Assembly: GCF_000196555.1 (NCBI RefSeq) | Contig: NC_015067.1 | Coordinates: 810,001 to 842,000 of the forward strand | Direction: 5' to 3' | Source of the DNA: Bifidobacterium longum subsp. longum JCM 1217 | Lineage (GTDB): Bacteria; Actinomycetota; Actinomycetes; Actinomycetales; Bifidobacteriaceae | DNA length: 32,000 bases | Part shown: one piece after another, positions 1,560-18,609 of the stretch | Layout: every line of letters begins with the position of its first letter | Numbering within the stretch: position 1 is the stretch's first letter | Notes under the pieces: generated by a model | What the model saw: only the letters and a program-made list of their open reading frames with translations | What the model was told of the DNA's origin: nothing | Database searches by the model: none | Made by a program: the position numbers and the translations under genes

Positions 1560-3230
1560 TCACTGCGCTTCGATGGCGGTGAGGGCGATGGTGTTGATGA
1601 TGTCCCGCACCAGAGCACCACGGGACAGGTCGTTTACCGGCTTGTTGAGACCCTGCAGCACCGGGCCGATGGCCAAGGCGCCGGAGGAGCGCTGCACAGC
1701 TTTGTAGCCGATGTTGCCGGCGCACAGGTCCGGGAAGACGAACACGTTGACGTGTCCAGCCACATCGTTGCCCTTGGCCTTGGTGGCGGCTACGGTGGGG
1801 GACCAAGCGGCGTCGAACTGGATGGAACCGACCACCGGCAGATCCGGAGCCTTCTCCTTGAGCAGCTTGGTGGCTTCCTCGACCATGTCCACGTCCGGTC
1901 CCTTGCCGGAACCGAGGGTGGAGTAGGAGAGCATACCGACCTTCGGGTCGATGCCGAAGGCACGTGCGGTCTCGGCGGACTGCAGCGCGATTTCGGAAAG
2001 CTGCTCGGCGTCCGGGTTGAGGTTGATGGCGCAGTCGGAGAACACGGCCACATGGTCCTTGAAGCACATGAGGAATGCGCCGGAGACCAGCTTCTGGCCG
2101 GGCTTGGTCTTGATGACCTGCAGGGCCGGGCGCACGGTGTTGGCGGTGGAGTTCACGGAGCCGGAGACCAGGCCGTCGGCGTAGCCGAGCACCACGAGCA
2201 TGGTGCCGAAGTAGCTGGCGTCGGTCAGCTGCTTGCGGGCCTGCTCCTCGGTCATGCCCTTCTTGGCACGCAACTCGCACAGCTTGGCGACCATGGGCTT
2301 CAGCACGTTCTCGTCGTCCATAGCCTGGAAGCGGGCGCGATCCAAGTAGTTCAGGCCCAGTTCCTTGCCGCGAGCCAGAATGGCGTCCTTGTTGCCCACG
2401 ATGATGAGGTTCACGATCTCGCGCTCAAGCAGGTAGTCGGCCGCCTTGATGATGCGGTCCTCCTCGCCTTCGGGCAGCACGATGGTCTTCTTGTTGCTCT
2501 TGGCCTTGCCGAGCAGGCCGAACTGGAAGGCGTACGGGGTGATGGGCGCGGTGACGTCCACATCGAGCGCGGCGAGCACTTCATCGGTGGGAGCGTTCTT
2601 ACGGAAGGCCTCCAGCGCCAGATCCTTGGTGGATTCATCGGTGAACGGCACCTGCGGAAGAGTCCAGACCGGCAGGCCGTACTTGGCGAGGGTCTCCTTA
2701 ACGGAGAAAGCGTGGCGCGGCTCGCATCCGGTCACGAAGATGCCGAGCACCTTGTTGCCAGCGGCCTCCATGCCCTCGATGGACAGCTTGACGGTCTCGT
2801 CGAGCTCGTGCGGCCAACGGTTGATGGTGCACACGGCTAGGAACACGCCGGCCTTCAGATCAGCGGCGACATTCGCGTCGAATTCATAGCTGGTCGGATC
2901 GTTGACGTGGGACTTGTCGGTGCCCACGATCAGGGCGGCGTCCGCGCGGGAAACGTCCATGGCATCGTTGAACGCGCCGACGATATCGCCACGGGCGGTG
3001 TTCTTATCTTCGCGCACCTTGTGCACATCGAGGCCGGTGGACAGGGCCACGCCGAGTCCGGCATTGGAGGCGGCGAGTAGGATCGGGGTGAATTCGTCAT
3101 GGTTGGACACAGCAGGGCGGAACACCATGGTCTTGTACTTGGAAGTCAATGCGTTGAGCATGCCGTAAGCGACGACGTTGCGGCCATTGGCGCCTTCAGG
3201 GCTGGCGATATATACACGGGTGACGGTCAC
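1560..3230 (-). CDS. pta: phosphate acetyltransferase (long form with N-terminal regulatory domain)
   Basis: The ORF is 556 aa from GTG 3228-3230, preceded by AAAGGAG (plus-strand ctccttt at 3242-3248). The C-terminal PTA_PTB-type sequence includes SGSVNSTANTVRPALQ and FVFPDLCAGNIGYK. It sits directly upstream of ackA. The track start at 3272 is probably an extension. Confidence 0.92.
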   Translation of the reverse strand: MTVTRVYIASPEGANGRNVVAYGMLNALTSKYKTMVFRPAVSNHDEFTPILLAASNAGLGVALSTGLDVHKVREDKNTARGDIVGAFNDAMDVSRADAALIVGTDKSHVNDPTSYEFDANVAADLKAGVFLAVCTINRWPHELDETVKLSIEGMEAAGNKVLGIFVTGCEPRHAFSVKETLAKYGLPVWTLPQVPFTDESTKDLALEAFRKNAPTDEVLAALDVDVTAPITPYAFQFGLLGKAKSNKKTIVLPEGEEDRIIKAADYLLEREIVNLIIVGNKDAILARGKELGLNYLDRARFQAMDDENVLKPMVAKLCELRAKKGMTEEQARKQLTDASYFGTMLVVLGYADGLVSGSVNSTANTVRPALQVIKTKPGQKLVSGAFLMCFKDHVAVFSDCAINLNPDAEQLSEIALQSAETARAFGIDPKVGMLSYSTLGSGKGPDVDMVEEATKLLKEKAPDLPVVGSIQFDAAWSPTVAATKAKGNDVAGHVNVFVFPDLCAGNIGYKAVQRSSGALAIGPVLQGLNKPVNDLSRGALVRDIINTIALTAIEAQ

Positions 3231-3395
3231 GATGTTTTTGTCTCCTTTGATGATCAACACGATAGGGACCACACCTCATTGTAGTGGCGATTACTGTTAT
3301 CGCTCACGCCGGTGTCGCGCCAATCGGAAGCGTCCCCTTTGCGACGCTTTCCGGGGAATGTTGCGCAAAACCCCAAAAGTCGGCCGATAGGCCAG

Positions 3396-3430
3396 AAAAC
3401 GAAAAAGGCCGGTGCGTGAAGCACCGGCCT
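3396..3430 (-). terminator. intrinsic terminator after the tRNA-Ala pair
   Basis: On the minus strand the sequence is AGGCCGGTGC-TTCAC-GCACCGGCCT followed by TTTTTCGTTTTC. It lies 6 nt past the tRNA 3' end. Confidence 0.75.
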
Positions 3431-3436
3431 CGATTG

Positions 3437-3509
3437 TGGAGCTAGGGGGATTCGAACCCCCGACCCTCTCCATGCCATGGAGATGCGCTACCAGCTGCGC
3501 TATAGCCCC
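3437..3509 (-). tRNA. tRNA-Ala (anticodon GGC)
   Basis: A 73-nt cloverleaf was folded by hand: GGGGCTA acceptor with the G3:U70 Ala identity pair, anticodon loop ATGGCAT, and T-arm GGGGG-TTCGAAT-CCCCC. CCA is not encoded. Confidence 0.93.
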
Positions 3510-3598
3510 GAGTGAAGCTATCCGATTCATGGGAGTCGCAAGACCCGCCATGAACCAGCGGAGAAACCACCATATCGCCTGACTTGATGGCTTCGTCG

Positions 3599-3671
3599 TG
3601 GAGCTAGGGGGATTCGAACCCCCGACCCTCTCCATGCCATGGAGATGCGCTACCAGCTGCGCTATAGCCCC
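3599..3671 (-). tRNA. tRNA-Ala (anticodon GGC), second identical copy
   Basis: The sequence is identical to 3437..3509 and lies 162 bp upstream in the same orientation. Confidence 0.93.
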
Positions 3672-3744
3672 GTTTTCAGTTGTTGGCCCGTTGTTTGGAC
3701 CTCGTATACATTACGACGAGATGTCGATTCTGGCAAAAGCCGGC

Positions 3745-3780
3745 GTGTCGCCAAATGGCAAAAGTGGGATTTGGCGACAC
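3745..3780 (-). terminator. hairpin downstream of the histidine-phosphatase gene (bidirectional-looking terminator)
   Basis: GTGTCGCCAAAT-N12-ATTTGGCGACAC forms a 12-bp perfect stem. It is flanked by TTTTTGG on the plus strand and by GCCGGCTTTTGCC on the minus strand. Confidence 0.55.
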
Positions 3781-3889
3781 TTTTTGGCTTGTTTCCGCCA
3801 TTATTCAGGCATTGGGTTATTCAATTACTGCTTGAACGGTTTTTCGAATACACTGAACCTGTTGGCTCAGCAGGGGAGCCGTGACACGA

Positions 3890-4588
3890 TCAGCGTTCGC
3901 GTTCCCACTCGTCGGTGTCGGCGATGGCCGGACCGTGATTGTAGTCCAGCAGACGCCAGCGCACAGTGCCATCGGGATTGTCCATCGGCACCAAGCGCAC
4001 CCAGTGCGCATTACGCAATGAAACCACCGTGGAAAAGGTCGGATCGATTGCAGAAATGCCCAACAGGGTCTGCAATGTCTGCGCAATCCATGCGCCGTGC
4101 GAGAACACGAACAGGTCCGTGTCGTCTCCGGCACGCGTGGACCAGTCCTCAAGAGCCTCCACGCCGCGCTTGCCCACAGCTTCCTTGGGCTCGGCTCCAT
4201 ACTTCAGCTCGCCGCCCCGAGACTCCATCCAGGAACGGAAGTCCTCGGGGTAGCGTTCGGCCAGTTCGGCCACGGCATGGCCATCCCAATCACCGAAGCT
4301 GCGTTCACGGACGCGACGATCATCGACGGGCTCGATTCCACCCAATACGTCGGCGAAAGCTTGCGCGGTGGCGTGCGCACGCTTCAAATCGGAGCAGACA
4401 ATGAACCGGTGGTTGATTTCCGGCCGACGATCGACGTACAGGCTTTTCAAGGCCGCGGCGGTCTGCTTGACCTGCCATTCACCCACGGCGTCCAGCGGAA
4501 TGTCGACCTGGCCTTGGAGCTTGTGAGCGGCGTTGTAGGAGGTACGTCCATGACGGATAAGGAAAACGGAACGAACATGATTGGTCAT
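3890..4588 (-). CDS. histidine phosphatase family protein (phosphoglycerate-mutase-like; position matches actinobacterial GpgP-type genes downstream of rsfS)
   Basis: This 232-aa ORF carries the catalytic RHG motif near the N-terminus (VFLIRHGRTSYN) and a later SHGAWI motif. The rsfS-then-phosphatase synteny is conserved. Confidence 0.85.
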   Translation of the reverse strand: MTNHVRSVFLIRHGRTSYNAAHKLQGQVDIPLDAVGEWQVKQTAAALKSLYVDRRPEINHRFIVCSDLKRAHATAQAFADVLGGIEPVDDRRVRERSFGDWDGHAVAELAERYPEDFRSWMESRGGELKYGAEPKEAVGKRGVEALEDWSTRAGDDTDLFVFSHGAWIAQTLQTLLGISAIDPTFSTVVSLRNAHWVRLVPMDNPDGTVRWRLLDYNHGPAIADTDEWERER

Positions 4589-11472: not shown

Positions 11473-11706
11473 CCCTTTCCGAACGACGTCGTAAACGGAA
11501 AAATTATACCGGACGTCGTCGGCAACAAAAAATGGGATTCCCCGATGGGGAATCCCATTCGTCATAGAGAGCAATTACTCCCGAGGAATGTTGAACAGGG
11601 GTTTGCATGGCTCCCAAAAACGCGCTGGTTGAAACGTTGCCGACGACGCGTGCGCTCGAAGAGTATGCACGGGTGGCTTTGCGGTGATTTCCCAGACCGT
11701 TCGTTG

Positions 11707-12090
11707 CTAGGCGAGATATTTCTTTTTCCAGGCCTTCTTTCGGGCGTAAGCGTTTTCTGTCATGTCGGAGTAGTCGTAATCAACTTTGAACTTGCCGTTG
11801 GAATGGAGAATAAGCGTCATCGATCCCCATCTCTTTTCGGGCTTAAGCGCGGCCCTTTCAGGTTCAATGAACTTGTTGATAGCCATAAAGTTTTTCATCA
11901 AGGATGCCCTCGAAACGCCTTTTTGGTCAAAGCATTTAACGAAGTCGTCTTTTCCGCTGCCAGCAACGTAATACTCAATAGAGAACGCACCCTCGGCGTA
12001 CTCGGCGTAAAACACGACCTTGCTCCAGTCTTCGGGGAGGGTTTCCTCAAGAATTGAAGCTATCCCTTGTAGCATCTTCTTTTCACTCAT
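11707..12090 (-). CDS. DUF600 / YezG-EsaG-like immunity (antitoxin) protein
   Basis: This 127-aa ORF carries family hallmarks recognised by eye: LPEDWSKVVFYAEY...FSIEYYV near the N-terminus, GKFKVDYDY, and a C-terminal WKKKYL. Its start overlaps the upstream toxin stop (TAATG), and AAGGA lies 8 nt upstream. Confidence 0.7.
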   Translation of the reverse strand: MSEKKMLQGIASILEETLPEDWSKVVFYAEYAEGAFSIEYYVAGSGKDDFVKCFDQKGVSRASLMKNFMAINKFIEPERAALKPEKRWGSMTLILHSNGKFKVDYDYSDMTENAYARKKAWKKKYLA

Positions 12091-13367
12091 TACATTTCCT
12101 TTGCAGTGTTAAGAAGAAACGTAACCGTCTCTTCGCCGTCAATAATGTCCGTGATAGCAAACGAGCTAGGCCTGAATGACCCGCCCTCATAAAGTGGCTC
12201 AACCTTGAAAAACACTTCAGCGCCATCAGCCAAAGCATCGGCGCATTTTTGCTCGATTGCTGCATAGGCTTTTTGGTTAACCTCGCCGCCCATGGCGACA
12301 ATATTCTCAAGGCCATTTGATCCATTGAATCGGTCGGCAATCAGATGGCCTCTTTGATCAAAAAGCTCTTCAAACCCTTTTCCGATTGACTGGATAGTGT
12401 CCTTGATGGTCAAACGACCTTCGTGGGTCTTTAGTTGTAAGAAGCCTTCGGCCGATTCGACCCTACCCATTGCATCGGTAACGTATTTATACCCATTGAT
12501 CTCATAGCTCATGTTCGGAACGAGGTCGTCGCCAACGCGGTAAAGTTGCCCGAGATCGTCGGTTGCACACTTCACGCCGTCGATCGCAAACTCGTTATTG
12601 GGAAGCAGTCGGTCGCCTTCGTAAATTGCCTTTCCGGCATCATCCAGAATTCGTGAGCTTGCGCCCGATTCTGCTGCCTTTGAGGCAAGAAAGTTATTTA
12701 GACCTCGTCCGGCAAGAAGCGTTGCTGCCGTAACAGTTCCCGCAACGACTTCTCCGACGATATCCTCCTGAGATATCTCACCGTCTTCAGCGCCGGCTTC
12801 CAAGCTCTTTCCCATTTCGTCAAGAACGAGTACAGACCCAGCAGCGAGTGCTGCAGGGGCAGAAGCGGTGACGGCTACGGCACCAAGCGCAACTTCAGTG
12901 GCGATTTCGCCTCCAGTTTCGACATAGTCTCCGATTTCCCGTATCTGCTCATCGGCTTCCATGAAGTCGCCCCAGGCGTTGGCTGCATCGTCAACAGCGT
13001 GTGTTTGCGCGGTTTTCACCGCTGCTTCTTCGTCTTCGGCCAGTAGTTCAATATTCGATTCAACACCGACATATGCGTTTTCTCCAACGTCGGCAACTCC
13101 AAGTACGAACCTGCCGCCAAGATAAGCTCCGTTCCTTGCGCCATCGCGGACAGTTTCGCCTGCAGCGTTGAGTGTTGGCTCGCATGCTTTCCAGGCGTCA
13201 TCTGCGGCTTCTTGAACTGTTGAAATGCTCGCGGTTAGGACATCGCCGGAAGAAATATCCCGCCATGCGGCATCTGCACAATCAGCAACGGTGCGTTGCG
13301 CCTCCTCAAAGGCCAATCTCGTTTCGGTCGTATCCGGCATTAATTGCTCTATATTTTCAAACGCCAT
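12090..13367 (-). CDS. polymorphic-toxin-like protein with a C-terminal Endonuclease_NS_2 (YeeF/EsaD-type) nuclease domain; the N-terminal ~280 aa are unassigned
   Basis: This is a 425-aa ORF. Residues ~285-420 read EINGYKYVTDAMGRV...DQRGHLIADRFNGSNGLENIV...N...VEPLYEGGSFRP...IIDGEE...F.N, matching the D-x-GHLI / N / RP layout of PF13930-type toxins. It is followed by the DUF600-type gene. No signal peptide is present. Confidence 0.7.
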   Translation of the reverse strand: MAFENIEQLMPDTTETRLAFEEAQRTVADCADAAWRDISSGDVLTASISTVQEAADDAWKACEPTLNAAGETVRDGARNGAYLGGRFVLGVADVGENAYVGVESNIELLAEDEEAAVKTAQTHAVDDAANAWGDFMEADEQIREIGDYVETGGEIATEVALGAVAVTASAPAALAAGSVLVLDEMGKSLEAGAEDGEISQEDIVGEVVAGTVTAATLLAGRGLNNFLASKAAESGASSRILDDAGKAIYEGDRLLPNNEFAIDGVKCATDDLGQLYRVGDDLVPNMSYEINGYKYVTDAMGRVESAEGFLQLKTHEGRLTIKDTIQSIGKGFEELFDQRGHLIADRFNGSNGLENIVAMGGEVNQKAYAAIEQKCADALADGAEVFFKVEPLYEGGSFRPSSFAITDIIDGEETVTFLLNTAKEM

Positions 13368-14102
13368 TTAGATCACCGGCCTTGTTTGAGATAAGACCGC
13401 TGATACTTCGGCGAGTGCTGAGGCCTTTTCCGTTGTCTCGATGCCGGTACCCCTCTTTCTCAGCTCGTTGAGATGAGCGTTAAGCATCGACTGAATGAAC
13501 AGGTATTGGATTGGTCCCCAGCTTTCGGGTGAGGAGTCATCTTCGAATTTCCAGCTTGAAAGCAGATGGGAGCAAAGCCTCTCTTTGAGGCTGTCGGCAG
13601 ATAAATCCCTGGCGTCGTCGAGGATGCGTCCAATATTGAAATACCTATAAGCACACCATTCAAACAGTGGCTTCCTCGAGGACAGAGGAGTCCTTGCCAT
13701 CTCAATCAAGCGTGCCTTCATGGAGTCAGGTATGTCCATCTTGTGCACACAGTCGCAGAAGTTGTATTCCCTTGGCTCATCGAGCTTGAACGGATTAAGC
13801 ACACAAGAGTTGAGATAGCGAAGCTCTTCAGAAGAAGCCTTGTCCTTCGCGCTGTGCTTGCTCTGTGTCGGCGAGTACTCTAGGCCGCGTTCATGCGGTT
13901 CGATGTGACAGAGGACAGGTTCGATCCATTCGTTCTGATATATTGCTGCAACGCCTCGCTGAAGCTTTGCAAGCTCTTGGATTTGGCTCTCGTTAAGATT
14001 TGCCGCCTTGCCGATAAGCATCCTGTCGCCTTCGTCAGGCAGTTTCCAGGATAAGTCGATGCGATGATTCTGCCTCAAGCCCAGCGGGTTGTTAAGGCGC
14101 GG
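13368..14102 (-). pseudogene. 5'-truncated gene tail, possibly the C-terminus of an FtsK/HerA-superfamily P-loop NTPase; truncated at an IS66-type terminal repeat
   Basis: The frame is open from 14102 but has no proper start (TTG at 14078, ATG at residue 20). The segment LIGKAANLNESQIQELAKLQRGVAAIYQNEWIEPVL resembles the post-Walker-B end of HerA/FtsK-like ATPases; this is a weak call made by eye. Its stop TAA abuts the toxin ATG. Confidence 0.35.
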
Positions 14103-14118: not shown

Positions 14119-14171
14119 ATCTCACTTTTGCAGACGTAGAATACGAGTATTGGAATCAAAGGAGGGTTCTC

Positions 14172-15496
14172 ATGCCAAATATCGGTAAGGACGACCATCC
14201 GAAGCTGTGGTCGCTTATTTTCGTGCTTATCATCGCGCTGACCTTCTGTTGCTTCGTCATGGGCCAAGGACTCAACAGTGGAACCAGCGTCTTCCTGGCA
14301 GGCCAAGGTTACGGTGCGAGCCTTGCCGGCGTACTTGCCTCGTCTTCTCCATTGCCGCCGCGTTAGCACGACTGTTCGTCGGCCCTGTTATCGACAACGG
14401 CAAGTGCTCACTCGTTATCATCGCCGGCATCGCTATCCTCATAGCAGGAACAGCACTGTCCGCTGTCGTTCAAGGCATCCCCCTCTTCACAATCAGCCGT
14501 TTGCTGCAAGGCGTGGGCTTTGGCGCAGCAACAACAGCAGCCTCGACCGCCGCAGCAAGCGTCTTACCGCAAGAACGGCTCGGCGAAGGCATTGGATACC
14601 ACGGCCTCGGACAGGCTATCGCCATGAGCATCGGCCCAGCCTTCGCACTTTACCTAGTAGGAACCGATCCCTCAACGAACCTCTATGTCGGCCTTGCCCT
14701 GGTTGGGTTTGCAGGGCTTGTAATCGCCCTCAACGCACGCTATGAAAGTAAATGGCAAACTCTGCCAAGCTCCAGCGCATACCGAATCAAAATGGAAACC
14801 CGGCTCGAACTCGACTCAAAAGACGGGCAGGCACCCAGCCCCACCACAGTAACTACATCCGAAACAATTAACAGTGAAAAGTATCCTGAAGGCGACCAGG
14901 TGTCCAAGAGAACCCTGCGTGACTCATTCAACATCTTCGAGCCGCGCGCATTGCCTGGCGCCATCCCACAGATGATCATGTGCCCCACTTTTGGCTTTGG
15001 CGTCTTCTTTGCTGGTCTGTACGGTACTACTCTCGGCTATACCCACGCCGGTCTCTTCTACACCATCAGCGCGGTAAGCATGATTATCATTCGCATGATT
15101 TCAAAGCATTTCATGGACACCGTACCTGCAATCAAAACAATGACCGGAGCCGTCGCGTGCGGCATCCTCTGCTGCCTTATGCTACTTGCCGCACCGTACG
15201 GGGAACCTGTCTTCCTGGCGTCCGGAATCTTCTATGGTCTCGCCACTGGCATAAGCCTGCCACTTAATCAAAGCGTAGCGGTAAAGAACACCCCGCCAGA
15301 GCGCTGGGGCGCCGCAAACGCCCTGTTCCTGCTCGCCAATGACATCGGCATTGGCTTCGCAAGCGTAATCTGGGGCGTTATCAATGACTCATTCGGGTTC
15401 CAGACAAGCATCGTCTGCGTCATTGTCTGCCTTATCGCAAGCTACGCATCCGCCTGGATCGTCTACCCCGCCCGCGACAAGCGGTGGAGGCATTAG
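14172..15496 (+). pseudogene. MFS transporter gene with a -1 frameshift near 14340-14343
   Basis: ATG 14172 is preceded by AAAGGAGGG. Frame 0 encodes MPNIGKDDHPKLWSLIFVLIIALTF...GASLAGVLAS. The reading continues in the next frame as VFSIAAALARLFVGPVIDNGK... through 12-TM-like sequence to TAG 15496. One G appears to be missing at TCG-GTC. Confidence 0.8.
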
Positions 15497-15499
15497 AGC

Positions 15500-16820
15500 G
15501 TAAGCGTCAAAATGACCGCGTAGCAGGAAACGTCCAGGACCATTCCGGCATACGGATGGAAAAGTCCTGGACGTTTCCATCTTTGCGTTGCGGTATGCCT
15601 TAGGCCGCTATGTCGCTACAGGCCCTCCTCGGCGTTGTTCGCCATCTCGTCGTCGAACGCATCGGGGTCGATGTTAATTATGAAGTCGTCAGGCATCTCT
15701 TTGGCCTTCTCGGCAGCGGCTGGGTCGAGCTTGCAGGACTCAGGCACCCTATCCGACCACGGCAGGAACGAGTCCACAACCTCATCGGTGAGCTCGCCGG
15801 CGTTGGGCATCTCGGTCAGCAGCCACTCGACGTAAAGCCTGGGATTGAGCCCGTTGGCCTTGGCCGTGGTGGTGACGCTGTATATCGCCGCAGACGCCCG
15901 CGCGCCGCGCGGCGCATCGCTGAAGAGCCAGTTCTTGCGCCCTACGACGAAGATTCGCTGGGCCTGCTCGGCGACGTTGTTCGAGAGCTCCAGGTGCCCC
16001 GTCTTCGAGCACGTTCATGACGTAGGGCCAGAACTCCACAGCGTACTGCAGCGCACGGTGCGGCGCCAGCTTCGGCGAGGCTAGGGGAAGCTGGGCCCGC
16101 GCCCATCCCCCGAAGTCCTCCATGAGCGGGCGGAGCTCCGCGTCGCGGGCGGCCTTCCTGCCGCCCGGCTCCATGTCGTCGAACTTGGAGTCGACCTTGA
16201 ACATGGCGTCGATCCTGCGCCTTGCCTCGAGCGCAACGCTGGCCGCAGACGCCGCCTTGGCGTCGCCGCCGGCGATCTTCACGATTTGGGCGAAGTAGCG
16301 GCGCACGTGGACGAGGCACGCCGTGTTGGCGATGTTGGGGTTGCCGAGATTGAAGTAGGGTTTGTAGCCGTTGGCGGTAAGCGTGCCGGACCAGCCCGCA
16401 AGAAACTCCTGGGCAACGCCCTTCCTGCGGGTCTCGTGGTATTCGAATACATACACGGGCACGTTGCAGCGCGCCGAGCAGAACAGCCACATCCTCGATT
16501 TCTTCTTCGCCTCGCGGTTCGGCTCTTTCAGGACCTGAACCGTGGTCTCATCGGCATGAATCCTGACATGCGACAGCAGCTCGACCTTCATTCTCTCATG
16601 GACCTTCGCCAGCCAGCGCGCGTGCACGTTCATCATCCAGTTCGCCATTCCTGGCGCGATATCGTCGCGCCGCACGCCTTGAGGTCTGTCTCTATGCGGT
16701 AGAGCGGCAGCGACATGACGTACTTGCCGTTGACGATCCAGGCAAGCAGCGACGGCGTCGCAAACGAGCCTGGTATCGGCGGCTCAGGCTGCGGTGCTCG
16801 CACGATGACGCCCTTGCGTT
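15500..16820 (-). mobile_element. IS66-family insertion sequence remnant (one end plus a damaged tnpC; the tnpA/tnpB side is missing)
   Basis: The terminal repeat GTAAGCGTCAAAATGACCGCG lies at 15500-15520. A subterminal 15-bp perfect inverted repeat lies at 15526-15540 / 15564-15578. The transposase reading frames run on the minus strand, and homology stops abruptly at ~16820. Confidence 0.85.
15616..16820 (-). pseudogene. IS66 family transposase (TnpC), N-terminally truncated with two frameshifts
   Basis: Three frames together read ...KGVIVRAPQPEPPIPGSFATPSLLAWIVNGKYVMSLPLYRIE...ISRQ / GMANWMMNVHARWL...ADETTVQVL...MWLF...LEDG / HLELSNNVAEQAQRIFVVGRKNWLFSD...YVEWLLTEMPNAGEL.... The frameshifts are at ~16650 (GG run) and ~15998 (GGGG run). 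Confidence 0.85.
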
Positions 16821-17151
16821 CCTATTGAGTTTCACTTGAGTTTCAGGGGCGTTTTTGGGGTGGTGGGACAAACTACTGGGACAGTTCACTCTCCGAAAAA
16901 TCCTTTACTCTTCGTCCGCTGCGTGTCGCCATGTCCGTGGTGTACGCGCTTTTAGAGTAAAAATGACTGAAACTGCAGGTCAAAAGGCATAAAGAGACCC
17001 CCTGAAAACGTTGTTTCCAGAGGGTCTCAATAGTTTTTACTCACCCAAAATCACAGGTGGCTTTACGCTTTTTCGTACGTGGCGGCACACTGCGACACTC
17101 TACGGACGGAATTTCGATTGCGCAAAATCCGCTCCAGTTTACTCCCACTCG
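16821..17151 (+). repeat. unit A of a diverged ~330-bp direct repeat, ending in a guaA-3'-end-like core (TTTACTCCCACTCG)
   Basis: By eye it aligns along its whole length with 18269..18621. Shared blocks include CCyrTTGAGTT..TTGAGTTTCA.GGG, GGGACAAA, AAATCCTT(T)ACTC, GAGTAAA..GCAGGT.AAA, a hairpin, GTTTTTACTCAC, TCGTACG and GCGG.ACAC..CG.CACTC. Confidence 0.75.
16994..17028 (-). terminator. terminator-like hairpin inside repeat unit A
   Basis: On the minus strand the sequence is GAGACCCTCTG-N13-CAGGGGGTCTC followed by TTTATGCCTTTTG. Its position is equivalent to the guaA-proximal hairpin in unit B. Confidence 0.5.
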
Positions 17152-17344: not shown

Positions 17345-17740
17345 TCAAATAAGGGACTGCTTCAACTGTAGAATCCGTTTTTCAATCTCTCGAATGATCT
17401 CGACAAAGACTTGATCTTCGCTTCCGGTCGGATCTTCTAATCCCCAGTTATCGTCAAATGCTCTACCAATGAAAGGACAGCCCACATTGCACCCCATGGA
17501 GATTGCAATATCAGGGGCAGGAATATCCGAGATCAGTTTGGAATACTGGGTTTTCTCCATGTCAATCCCGTACAGTTCTTTCATAATGCGGACAGCATCC
17601 TGATTGATTTGCGGTTTTGTTTCCGTTCCTGCGGAATAGCTTTCAAACACATCGGAAGCCAAGTGCTTTCCCAAGGCCTCGGCAATCTGACTGCGGCAGG
17701 AATTATGGACGCAGATAAATGCCACCTTTTTCTTACTCAT
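17345..17740 (-). CDS. arsC: arsenate reductase, thioredoxin-coupled LMW-PTPase type
   Basis: This 131-aa ORF has the CVHNSCRS (CX5R) P-loop at residues 10-17 and the Cys pair in GCNVGCP (pI258-type C82/C89 arrangement). The region has low-GC, Firmicute-like composition. Confidence 0.9.
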   Translation of the reverse strand: MSKKKVAFICVHNSCRSQIAEALGKHLASDVFESYSAGTETKPQINQDAVRIMKELYGIDMEKTQYSKLISDIPAPDIAISMGCNVGCPFIGRAFDDNWGLEDPTGSEDQVFVEIIREIEKRILQLKQSLI

Positions 17741-17760: not shown

Positions 17761-18268
17761 TTATTTGCGTTTTTTTACAAGGAACAGCATCACGGGAACT
17801 TCTGTCAGCACACCCACAGTCGTTGCCAGTGCCGCAGGGGAAGTCGTTCCAAACAAGGCGATTGCAACAGCAACAGCCAGTTCAAAGAAGTTGGAAGCAC
17901 AAATCATTCCGGCGGGAGCAGCAATCTTGTAGGGCAGCTTCAAAACCCGGCAAGCGATATACGCAATCGCAAAAATCAGGAAGGTCTGTAAAATCAGCGG
18001 TACCGCAATCAAAACAATGTGCAGAGGTTTTTCCAGAATGGTATTGCCTTGGAACGAGAAAATCATCACCAGCGTCAGCAATAAGCCAATGGTAGTTACA
18101 CTGTCAAACATATGGATGAAAGTCTCCTCAAAGTACACTGCCCCTTCCGCTTGATGACAGCCGAACGGGTCAGCATACCGCCAGCCAGAGGAAACACCAC
18201 AAACAGTACCACAGAGAGAATCAGGGTATCCCACGGAACGGGAACATTGGAACGCCCAGCAAAAAATG
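17761..18268 (-). pseudogene. acr3: ACR3-family arsenite efflux permease, C-terminal half only, with a frameshift in a G4 run (~18141-18144)
   Basis: One frame reads [42 protein letters not shown]. The next frame reads [24 protein letters not shown]...[17 protein letters not shown]...[11 protein letters not shown]. About the first half of the gene is absent, and homology ends at the edge of repeat unit B. Confidence 0.85.
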
Positions 18269-18609
18269 CCCGTTGAGTTCGATTTGAGTTTCACGGGCCC
18301 CGAAACGGCCCCGTTTCGCCCTCGGGGACAAAAACCGCGCGTCAACTCACTTGGGATAAATCCTTACTCCCATTCCCTCGAATACCTCCCCGTGCCTTGT
18401 TGTCTTGAAACACGGGGAGTAAATGGCGAAATCGCAGGTGAAAGGGAGTAAAACGGCAAAGAAAAAGCCTCCGTTCCAACGAGGGAACGGAGGCTAGGAA
18501 ATCGTTTTTACTCACTGCCGTCGCTGGCGGTTTTGCCATGACTCTCGTACGAAACGAAACTCAGCGGTACACCACGGCACTCAAAAGAGCAGGTCAAAGC
18601 CCTATCGGC

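Follow-up and report, generated by a model that had tools for sequence, protein, structure and literature searches.

On the reverse strand of a 32,000-nucleotide stretch of the Bifidobacterium longum subsp. longum JCM 1217 chromosome (NC_015067.1, positions 810,001 to 842,000; here called the window, whose numbering is used unless a contig is named), a gene for a predicted DNase toxin is followed directly by a gene for its putative immunity protein. The pair is of a known kind. What surrounds it is less familiar, as it is very probably the stranded tail of an operon that elsewhere has four genes, for a dynamin-like GTPase, a HerA-like ATPase of the DUF87 family, the toxin and the immunity protein, in that order. 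The features of the locus are collected in Table 1.

The toxin and its immunity protein

An earlier note on this DNA, made from the sequence letters alone, had proposed an Endonuclease_NS_2 toxin and a DUF600/YezG immunity open reading frame (ORF), and both assignments hold, with exact coordinates. The toxin matches PF13930 (Endonuclea_NS_2) at residues 284–408 (E 2.1e-24, 86.7 bits against a cutoff of 27), and the immunity protein matches PF04634 (YezG-like; E 5.5e-17, 62.7 bits against a cutoff of 21.7) and TIGR01741 (E 7e-10). The family match above threshold and the position directly 3′ of a Tox-NucA toxin place the second gene product in the YezG/DUF600/Imm36 family. The TAATG in which the immunity ATG meets the toxin TAA had likewise been read correctly. 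Among solved structures the closest relative of the toxin is Staphylococcus aureus EsaD/EssD, by sequence (8guo, E 8e-8), and the modelled nuclease domain also resembles EsaD by fold (8gun, E 2e-5 with Foldseek). In alignment, the toxin segment DQRGH341LIADRFNGSNGLEN355 stands opposite EssD DDGGHLIARMFGGSKDIDN, and the conserved His, equivalent to EsaD H528, with its downstream Asn is the predicted signature of a beta-beta-alpha-metal nuclease. The toxin is thus predicted to be a DNase of the EsaD/YeeF type. Its allele in the window is an intact ORF, and no second copy of the toxin or immunity gene is present within the 32,000 nucleotides.

Two metagenome variants of the toxin depart from the usual architecture. 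One (P0008, 552 residues) is a toxin–immunity fusion with PF13930 and PF04634 in a single ORF, and the other (P0030, 303 residues) has a fragment of the toxin N-terminal domain joined to an FMN_bind domain; both are probably products of frameshifting or rearrangement.

Where would the transcript of the pair end? The terminator-like hairpin of Table 1 falls within the longest reading of the DUF1846 ORF (TTG start at 11574). However, the NCBI annotation of that protein at 493 residues, together with a Pfam match that begins at residue 42, suggests that the true DUF1846 start is downstream of the TTG, in which case the hairpin would be intergenic and would terminate the toxin–immunity transcript.

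Table 1. Features of the locus, in window coordinates (aa, amino acids)
Feature	Position	Strand	Remarks
Terminator-like hairpin	11530-11560	-	14-bp stem and T-run; pattern match only; ~150 nt 3′ of immunity stop
Immunity gene	11707-12090	-	127 aa; YezG-like (DUF600/Imm36); start shares one base with toxin stop
Toxin ORF	12090-13367	-	425 aa; Endonuclease_NS_2 (PF13930) C-terminus
Toxin C-terminal DNase domain (predicted), aa 284-425	12090-12518	-	EsaD-like; RGH motif with H341, then N355 and N364
Toxin linker/pre-toxin segment, aa 227-283	12519-12689	-	Variable; C-terminal modules switch here between relatives
Toxin N-terminal constant domain, aa 1-226	12690-13367	-	Predicted all-helical; without named family
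ATPase gene remnant	13368-14078	-	236-aa ORF; equivalent to the C-terminal ~235 of ~1,016 residues; aligns with intact genes from 14042
Replacement segment	14043-16835		MFS transporter and IS66 fragment in place of the dynamin gene and of the first 2.3 kb of the ATPase gene
MFS transporter	~14171-15496	+	Frameshifted at ~14339 in the window
IS66-family transposase fragment	15782-16675	-	PF03050
Remnant of region just upstream of ancestral dynamin gene	16836-17111	-	84.9% nt identity to contig L021 3558-3834
ArsC-type low-molecular-weight phosphatase	17345-17740	-	PF01451
ACR3 arsenite carrier, C-terminal part	17761-18345	-	By eye
guaA	18610-20217	-	Borders the island

An operon tail without its head

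The ORF upstream of the toxin, overlooked in the earlier note, is the key to the locus. Its TAA directly abuts the toxin ATG and it has no Pfam match. It is 48% identical (E 2e-70) to residues 782–1016 of the 1,016-residue ATPase encoded on a Collinsella contig (L001), and is a fragment of the partner ATPase gene; as the part that remains lacks the P-loop core, its product cannot be an ATPase. In every relative with enough flanking sequence the order is Dynamin_N GTPase (810–843 residues), DUF87 ATPase (1,008–1,019 residues), toxin, immunity protein. Intact relatives were found on Collinsella ihuae-like contigs, in Candidatus Aphodovivens and Thermophilibacter, and on unassigned metagenome contigs, with toxins at 78% and 85% identity to the window's.

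The second of these unassigned contigs, L021, whose toxin is the 85% one and whose cassette is intact, shows what has been lost. Window positions 11704–14042, comprising the ATPase 3′ end, toxin and immunity gene, are 82.6% identical to it in nucleotides, and the second block of homology, on the far side of the replacement segment, corresponds to L021 sequence lying 94–370 nt upstream of the dynamin start at 3928. From the two blocks it follows that ~4.9 kb of ancestral cassette was replaced by 2.8 kb. On this comparison of sequences the pair is the 3′ end of a four-gene operon, from which an IS66-associated replacement has removed the GTPase gene and the first ~780 ATPase codons; the IS66 element is the likely agent of the deletion. 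A promoter scan found a single site, at the deletion junction, which does not exceed chance expectation. The same truncated layout was seen in all 20 examined contigs that carry P0001 (a toxin differing from the window's by 2 residues) and in ~20 GTDB contigs; the truncation has thus become fixed in a B. longum lineage and did not arise in assembly. A further copy of the cassette, on an Escherichia coli plasmid (L128), is likewise preceded by an IS66 element.

That the pair lies in DNA of lower G+C content (GC) had been surmised from a spot count and is confirmed, with values of 0.47–0.55 over 11501–14000 against 0.60–0.67 in the flanks; the view that it was acquired horizontally, with its partner genes missing from the window, also stands. 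Its supposed position inside a housekeeping block is right as to the flanks, but the pair itself sits in a degenerate low-GC island of ~7 kb (~11.6–18.5 kb) between the DUF1846 gene and guaA. The MFS gene of the island has, relative to an intact 441-residue allele in a B. longum contig (L016), a 1-nt deletion at ~14339 that splits it into two ORFs, and in the window it is either a pseudogene or a sequencing error. It is also split in L015 and L020, there with other positions of the break probable from the fragment lengths. Genes for ArsP and ArsR are found upstream of a related intact cassette (L012).

From where did the island come? In Collinsella, guaA is followed closely by an intact cassette of the same orientation (L008, guaA at 764–2353), and L001 carries at 3155–4138 a divergent guaA 3′ fragment that is 65% identical. 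The sequences thus suggest an integration hotspot at the guaA 3′ end common to Coriobacteriia and Bifidobacterium, and DNA of the Coriobacteriia type is a likely source of the island. The flanking phosphoribosyl pyrophosphate (PRPP) synthetase, DUF1846 and GlmU proteins are identical to B. longum entries. About 18 short contigs (3–10 kb; within L026–L046) that are filed under various 'uncultured Collinsella sp.' metagenome-assembled genomes (MAGs) are at least 99% identical to the window. Collinsella was considered as their host and rejected, as the longer ones (L035, L040, L041 and the Bifidobacterium-labelled L038) run into B. longum housekeeping flanks; island contigs are probably mis-binned systematically as Collinsella. 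Those working with such genomes should be aware that short contigs of this B. longum island are widely binned into 'Collinsella' MAGs.

A constant N-terminal domain with exchangeable nucleases

Conservation of the toxin N-terminus extends over residues 1 to ~226, ending in GRGLNN, beyond which relatives diverge fully in the alignment; W35, W59, Y82, G90, G146, D147, G186 and G196 are invariant among the 16 aligned sequences. The earlier note could put no name to this region and described it as lacking a signal peptide and having two Ala/Gly/Val-rich hydrophobic stretches. All of this was borne out: residues 1–285 gave nothing above noise against Pfam at E≤10, no signal peptide was found in the toxin, and the stretches have Kyte–Doolittle 19-residue maxima of 1.92 (residues 164–182) and 1.36 (202–220). 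The domain is rare, with 26 matches at E≤1e-3 among 1.84 billion representative proteins, and with its own hidden Markov model (HMM) was found always in the context of the cassette.

What makes the domain informative is the company of its C-terminal side. It is joined to at least four classes of C-terminal module, with the immunity family changing along with the toxin class: Endonuclease_NS_2 partnered by YezG, WHH/Colicin-DNase partnered by SUKH/SMI1_KNR4, an HNH-like domain, and an unnamed 'HHMP...DHR' domain partnered by an unnamed 129-residue protein. Two Collinsella loci, L001 and L008, are 97.3% identical from the GTPase gene through the ATPase gene to about codon 150 of the toxin, past which homology is absent and the immunity family differs; a breakpoint of such sharpness is a polymorphic-toxin signature. 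Between relatives, nucleotide homology stops inside or just ahead of the linker at residues 227–283. The effector is modular, a constant N-domain being combined with a swappable C-terminal nuclease that travels with its own adjacent, cognate immunity gene, as in polymorphic toxins generally. The suggestion that the N-terminal module might be new was well founded, as it is a distinct unnamed domain that acts as the constant part of a polymorphic toxin.

Structure prediction adds little. AlphaFold2 models of the toxin, built with 13- and 25-sequence alignments, have a pLDDT of 38 and 52 and give the N-domain as all-helical, and a Foldseek search with the toxin model returned the EsaD nuclease and non-specific helical bundles only. 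The idea that the N-domain recurs as a piece of longer Firmicute ATPases, i.e., a Rosetta-stone fusion, was discarded, as its HMM matches toxins of the actinobacterial type only and no ATPase. The Firmicute versions of the toxin are without the 226-residue domain; common to them is a short N-terminal motif, approximately [FY]K-x-IKP-x(2-4)-MT...FW..LF, read in the first 40 residues at L056, L059, L061, L062, L065, L067, L070, L073 and L085, and several also have repeated 'DPDKRI/VE' units. Motif and repeats are candidates for a linear docking signal.

The GTPase and the ATPase of intact cassettes

Intact ATPases match PF01935 at residues 477–659 and have GSTGCGKS and EEAH motifs, the Walker A and B signatures of the DUF87/HerA group. 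Among solved structures their profile finds Sulfolobus HerA and a number of bacterial HerA entries (E 1e-10 to 1e-7), several of which we take to be HerA–effector defence complexes, and it also matches the HerA models of PADLOC; there is in addition a weak match to the TrwB coupling protein (E 9.5e-5). The GTPase profile matches Nostoc BDLP (E 5.7e-13) and mitofusins. No transmembrane (TM) helix was found in any of 52 GTPases, and 74 ATPases yielded one marginal hydrophobic segment; signal peptides are absent from the payloads of the cassette.

Conservation of the ATPase is high over its whole length but for the ~165 residues at the C-terminus. Among 43 non-redundant loci, similarity in this tail tracks similarity in the first 90 residues of the toxin (Spearman 0.78; partial 0.73 when the ATPase core is controlled for), whereas the ATPase N-terminus does not track the toxin N-terminus (partial 0.15). 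Such covariation fits a docking interface between tail and toxin.

Is the cassette one of the catalogued defence systems? That was considered and rejected. With PADLOC-DB v2.0.0, only generic HerA, mad8 and weak LeoA matches were obtained; in the plasmid-borne cassettes neither nuclease nor immunity protein had a match at E≤0.001, and for the pair in the window, the toxin had no match and the immunity protein matched only PDC-M71A, at E 0.0062. The LeoA/LeoBC matches are partial and weak (E 1e-5 to 3e-14 over 50–260 residues) and do not make the cassette a member of Eleos. Eleos (the LeoA/LeoBC 'Dynamins'), BDLP and DynA share with it a GTPase of the dynamin superfamily, and Eleos also a defence-like context; the cassettes of Lactococcus and E. 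coli plasmids, with two tandem dynamin genes and weak LeoA/LeoBC matches, are similar to Eleos in those respects. However, the LeoA match to the Collinsella GTPase covers the P-loop region only (E 1e-5), and Eleos has no HerA ATPase, nuclease or immunity gene, whereas the cassette has three further obligatory genes. The HerA–effector anti-phage systems (Sir2-HerA, DUF4297-HerA) and archaeal HerA-NurA are alike in placing the gene for a hexameric ATPase of the HerA clade beside that for a nuclease or other effector. They differ in that the cassette ATPase is twice as long, with a conserved ~450-residue N-terminal region that is unmatched and the variable ~165-residue tail, in that the cassette effector, encoded downstream, is polymorphic and comes with an immunity protein, and in that a dynamin-like GTPase is an obligatory partner.

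Spread and neighbourhood of the cassette

At least 843 entries of the protein database are related to the ATPase, among them some from Streptococcus salivarius, Fournierella and Lachnospiraceae. In S. salivarius the cassette reads, with lengths in residues, Dynamin(824)-ATPase(1124)-LHH nuclease(189)-SUKH(134). Metagenome loci, 80 in all, were collected by their ATPase and the neighbouring ORFs called. Upstream of the ATPase is a gene for 780–890 residues in 52 of the 80, and all 48 proteins scanned, mostly products of these upstream genes plus the reference GTPases of L001, L021, L023 and L025, match Dynamin_N. Downstream, 66 of the 80 have a gene for 165–400 residues and then one for 115–155 residues. 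The payloads of these pairs are Colicin-DNase/WHH (25), Endonuclease_NS_2 (14), LHH (9), Ntox15 (1) and unnamed (~17), those recognised all being DNases, and the second genes encode DUF6985 (21), SUKH (14), YezG (14) and Tdi1_C (1), with the rest unnamed.

Plasmid versions have six or seven genes, with the dynamin gene in tandem duplicate. One, preceded by a WYL regulator, is on the conjugative dairy plasmid pB26B of Lactococcus cremoris, and another is on the E. coli IncI plasmid pTW10590_133, E. coli carriage being in one of 5,426 complete genomes. As to phages, two unannotated 'Bacteriophage sp.' fragments are the only matches. One or two extra small genes occur between the dynamin and ATPase genes (L025 8636–8998; L127 4853–5894; L128 5014–5886); that of L025 has no Pfam family on record, those of the plasmids are 'hypothetical protein' in their records, and L128 5014–5886 gave no PADLOC match. 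In the Firmicute loci L087, L091, L094, L101, L102 and L064 a gene for ~228 residues recurs directly 3′ of the immunity gene. Integrases, resolvases and relaxases are common in the flanks, where DUF6782, a putative metallopeptidase, is the third most frequent family (5 of 141 ORFs).

Decay in the B. longum population

Comparison of 22 loci of the B. longum type with the window, a sample in which the numbers are small, shows the three surviving genes to have fared differently. The ATPase remnant has 4 synonymous and 12 non-synonymous changes, 1 nonsense mutation and no indels (24 variable sites per kb), and so varies nearly neutrally. The toxin has 8 synonymous and 13 non-synonymous changes, 1 nonsense mutation (Q8*) and 2 frameshifts (19 variable sites per kb), which makes three independent disrupting mutations. 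The immunity gene is the least variable, with no synonymous change, 1 non-synonymous change, no nonsense mutation and 1 indel (5 variable sites per kb), and is intact in 21 of the 22 loci. In 9 of the 22 an A-run at codon 365 of the toxin (window ~12274) has lost one nucleotide; this frameshift, the commonest of the disruptions, exchanges the 60 C-terminal residues of the nuclease for others. Judged by its length of 427 residues and 92% identity, this allele appears to be P0004, the largest protein cluster, with 4,231 members; two clusters of the intact type have 1,626 and 1,038. From this pattern we infer that the effector is decaying after loss of its machinery and that the immunity gene is being kept.

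Is the pair then no more than a selfish toxin–antitoxin module, or a pseudogene in waiting, devoid of function for the organism and with an ancestral cassette that is irrelevant today? Deletion of the partner genes, disruption of the toxin in three independent ways, the near-neutral variation of the ATPase remnant and promoter evidence that is not above chance would all be accounted for. Yet the toxin ORF is intact in the window and in about half of the loci, and variation in the immunity gene is well below that of the genes beside it (5 against 19–24 sites per kb), so that such an account is improbable as an alternative; it is in any case largely compatible with the explanation favoured below rather than exclusive of it.

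Secretion, delivery or defence

The earlier note placed the pair with the effectors of the Firmicute type VII secretion system (T7SS), and the nuclease and immunity protein are indeed of the same families as S. aureus EsaD(EssD)/EsaG and Bacillus subtilis YeeF/YezG, with the nuclease fold, the catalytic RGH motif and the position of the immunity gene directly downstream all in common; the toxin N-terminus, moreover, is helical and roughly of the length of an LXG domain. If this were an orphan LXG-type effector with an EsaG-like immunity protein, leaving the cell through an ESX/T7SS whose genes are in another part of the bifidobacterial genome, then some trace of LXG or WXG100 would be expected. 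There is none: neither LXG (PF04740) nor WXG100 matched toxin residues 1–285 at E≤10 or any of 25 family members at E≤0.1, the toxin family profile found no Esx or LXG chain among Protein Data Bank (PDB) sequences at E≤10, and none of the ORFs scanned in the window matched a T7SS family. No small WXG100- or Lap-like genes are adjacent. In all intact relatives the upstream genes are those for the Dynamin_N and DUF87 proteins, translationally abutting, and not for EssC/EccC, EsxA or Lap. Whereas EssC is a membrane protein with three FtsK domains, the ATPase of the cassette is soluble, consists of a single HerA/DUF87 domain and is partnered by a dynamin-like GTPase, and the N-domain, neither LXG- nor WXG-like, belongs to a tiny family (26 representatives) that keeps to the cassette. 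The T7SS assignment is highly improbable and is not retained. The delivery route, which had been left open, can be treated only in part: the linked machinery has been identified, with its remnant beside the toxin, but delivery anywhere at all is doubtful.

The preferred explanation, to which a probability of about 0.6 may be given as a whole, is that the window holds the remnant of a cassette which, when intact, is an intracellular conflict system, i.e., one for anti-phage or anti-plasmid defence or abortive infection. The DNase would dock via its N-domain on the hypervariable C-terminal tail of the ATPase, and the immunity protein would keep it silent until a trigger arrives. The two NTPases would sense the trigger and then either release the nuclease or feed DNA to it, as in HerA-NurA and HerA–effector defence complexes. 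In the window, deprived of the motor, the pair would persist as a toxin–antitoxin-like remnant in which the toxin is being lost and the immunity gene retained. The intracellular reading is favoured because the components are soluble, because the cassette occurs in monoderms and in a diderm, because the recognised payloads are all DNases and because the context is defence-like. Seven of seven distinct annotated contexts have defence-gene neighbours (McrBC, GmrSD, AbiA, Abi_2, AbiE, CBASS and BREX), with the cassette of Fournierella lying between CBASS, GmrSD, MmeI-type and BREX genes, and of 141 ORFs in the flanks of 68 unique loci, 9 encode helix-turn-helix (HTH)-WYL regulators. The six of these that were placed by coordinates are all upstream of the GTPase gene on the same strand; the HTH-WYL class includes the defence regulators BrxR and CapW. 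For docking, the abutment of the ATPase stop and the toxin start can be counted.

Several points weigh against it. SUKH, Imm36/YezG and Tdi1 classically partner exported polymorphic toxins, and defence effectors seldom have an immunity protein of their own. The defence-island contexts are a raw count, and the S. salivarius locus has no defence neighbours. The AlphaFold2 toxin models, at pLDDT 38 and 52, are of too low a confidence for a fold to be assigned to the N-domain, whose two moderately hydrophobic Ala/Gly/Val stretches could touch membranes. As the ATPase tail and the toxin N-terminus are contiguous on the DNA, plain linkage could give their covariation.

Some of the same facts can be turned to export. 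A dynamin/ATPase cassette could be a system, other than T7SS, for toxin export or cell-to-cell delivery, in which the FtsK/HerA-like ATPase hands a toxin recognised by its N-domain to the membrane and the GTPase remodels or fuses membrane, in vesicles or nanotubes, for release; the window would then hold an orphan toxin and an immunity gene kept against neighbours that still fire the system. The dynamins of enterotoxigenic E. coli, LeoA, have been linked to toxin release through vesicles. The weak TrwB match of the ATPase and the hydrophobic stretches of the N-domain would have a place in such a scheme, as would the fact that in B. longum immunity is the best conserved gene while the toxin decays. 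Then there is the architecture itself, classical for polymorphic toxins, with immunity families (SUKH, YezG/Imm36, Tdi1) known from effectors of type VI secretion (T6SS), T7SS and contact-dependent inhibition (CDI) (PMC3482391), and FtsK/HerA ATPases drive both T7SS and type IV secretion (T4SS) (PMC3482391). Yet nowhere in the cassette is there a membrane protein, TM segment or signal peptide, and the same parts occur in a diderm (on the E. coli plasmid), where two membranes could not be crossed by them. Further, among recognised payloads no toxin aimed at the cell wall, the membrane or NAD was found, and the defence islands and WYL regulators point the other way. Export is therefore rated unlikely, if far from negligible, and intracellular conflict remains the preferred reading.

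What is known and what would be new

Though the pair itself belongs to a known kind, and the cassette consists of known classes of component, their arrangement was not found described in PADLOC v2.0.0, in the polymorphic-toxin surveys or by full-text searches of the literature, a coverage that is incomplete, so that there may be an earlier description. The likeness to polymorphic toxin systems as set out by Zhang et al. 2012 (PMC3482391) extends from the constant N-terminal module, the C-terminal swapping and the sharp recombination breakpoint to the matched immunity families, Imm36/DUF600 with Tox-NucA and SUKH with HNH/WHH/LHH. What differs is that the cassette has no secretion signal or membrane component and that its recognised payloads are all DNases. 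That survey lists no dynamin-linked trafficking mode, and the word 'dynamin' does not occur in either it or its 2011 predecessor.

Tentatively, and as something a shade short of probable, the combination of GTPase, ATPase, polymorphic DNase and immunity protein may be a previously unrecognised and widespread class of bacterial conflict system, in which a membrane-remodelling GTPase and an ATPase of the translocase type would jointly deploy a swappable nuclease restrained by its immunity protein, be it as defence mechanism or as delivery route, and for which the 226-residue N-domain would be a new adaptor that plugs effectors into the ATPase tail. The cassette is spread over Firmicutes and Actinobacteria, with matches also on Treponema and E. 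coli plasmids, and over conjugative plasmids.

As a decayed remnant, the B. longum locus is itself of modest interest, other than as a clean natural case in which an effector and its immunity protein have survived the loss of their machinery, the first now eroding and the second retained. The intact cassette, however, is common in human-gut Collinsella, S. salivarius and Lachnospiraceae, and its presence on dairy Lactococcus plasmids and an E. coli plasmid makes it experimentally tractable. It ties two classes of protein whose roles in bacteria are debated, dynamin-like GTPases and HerA-like motors, to an easily assayed DNase with a known immunity partner, and through that link the function of bacterial dynamins in conflict becomes directly testable.

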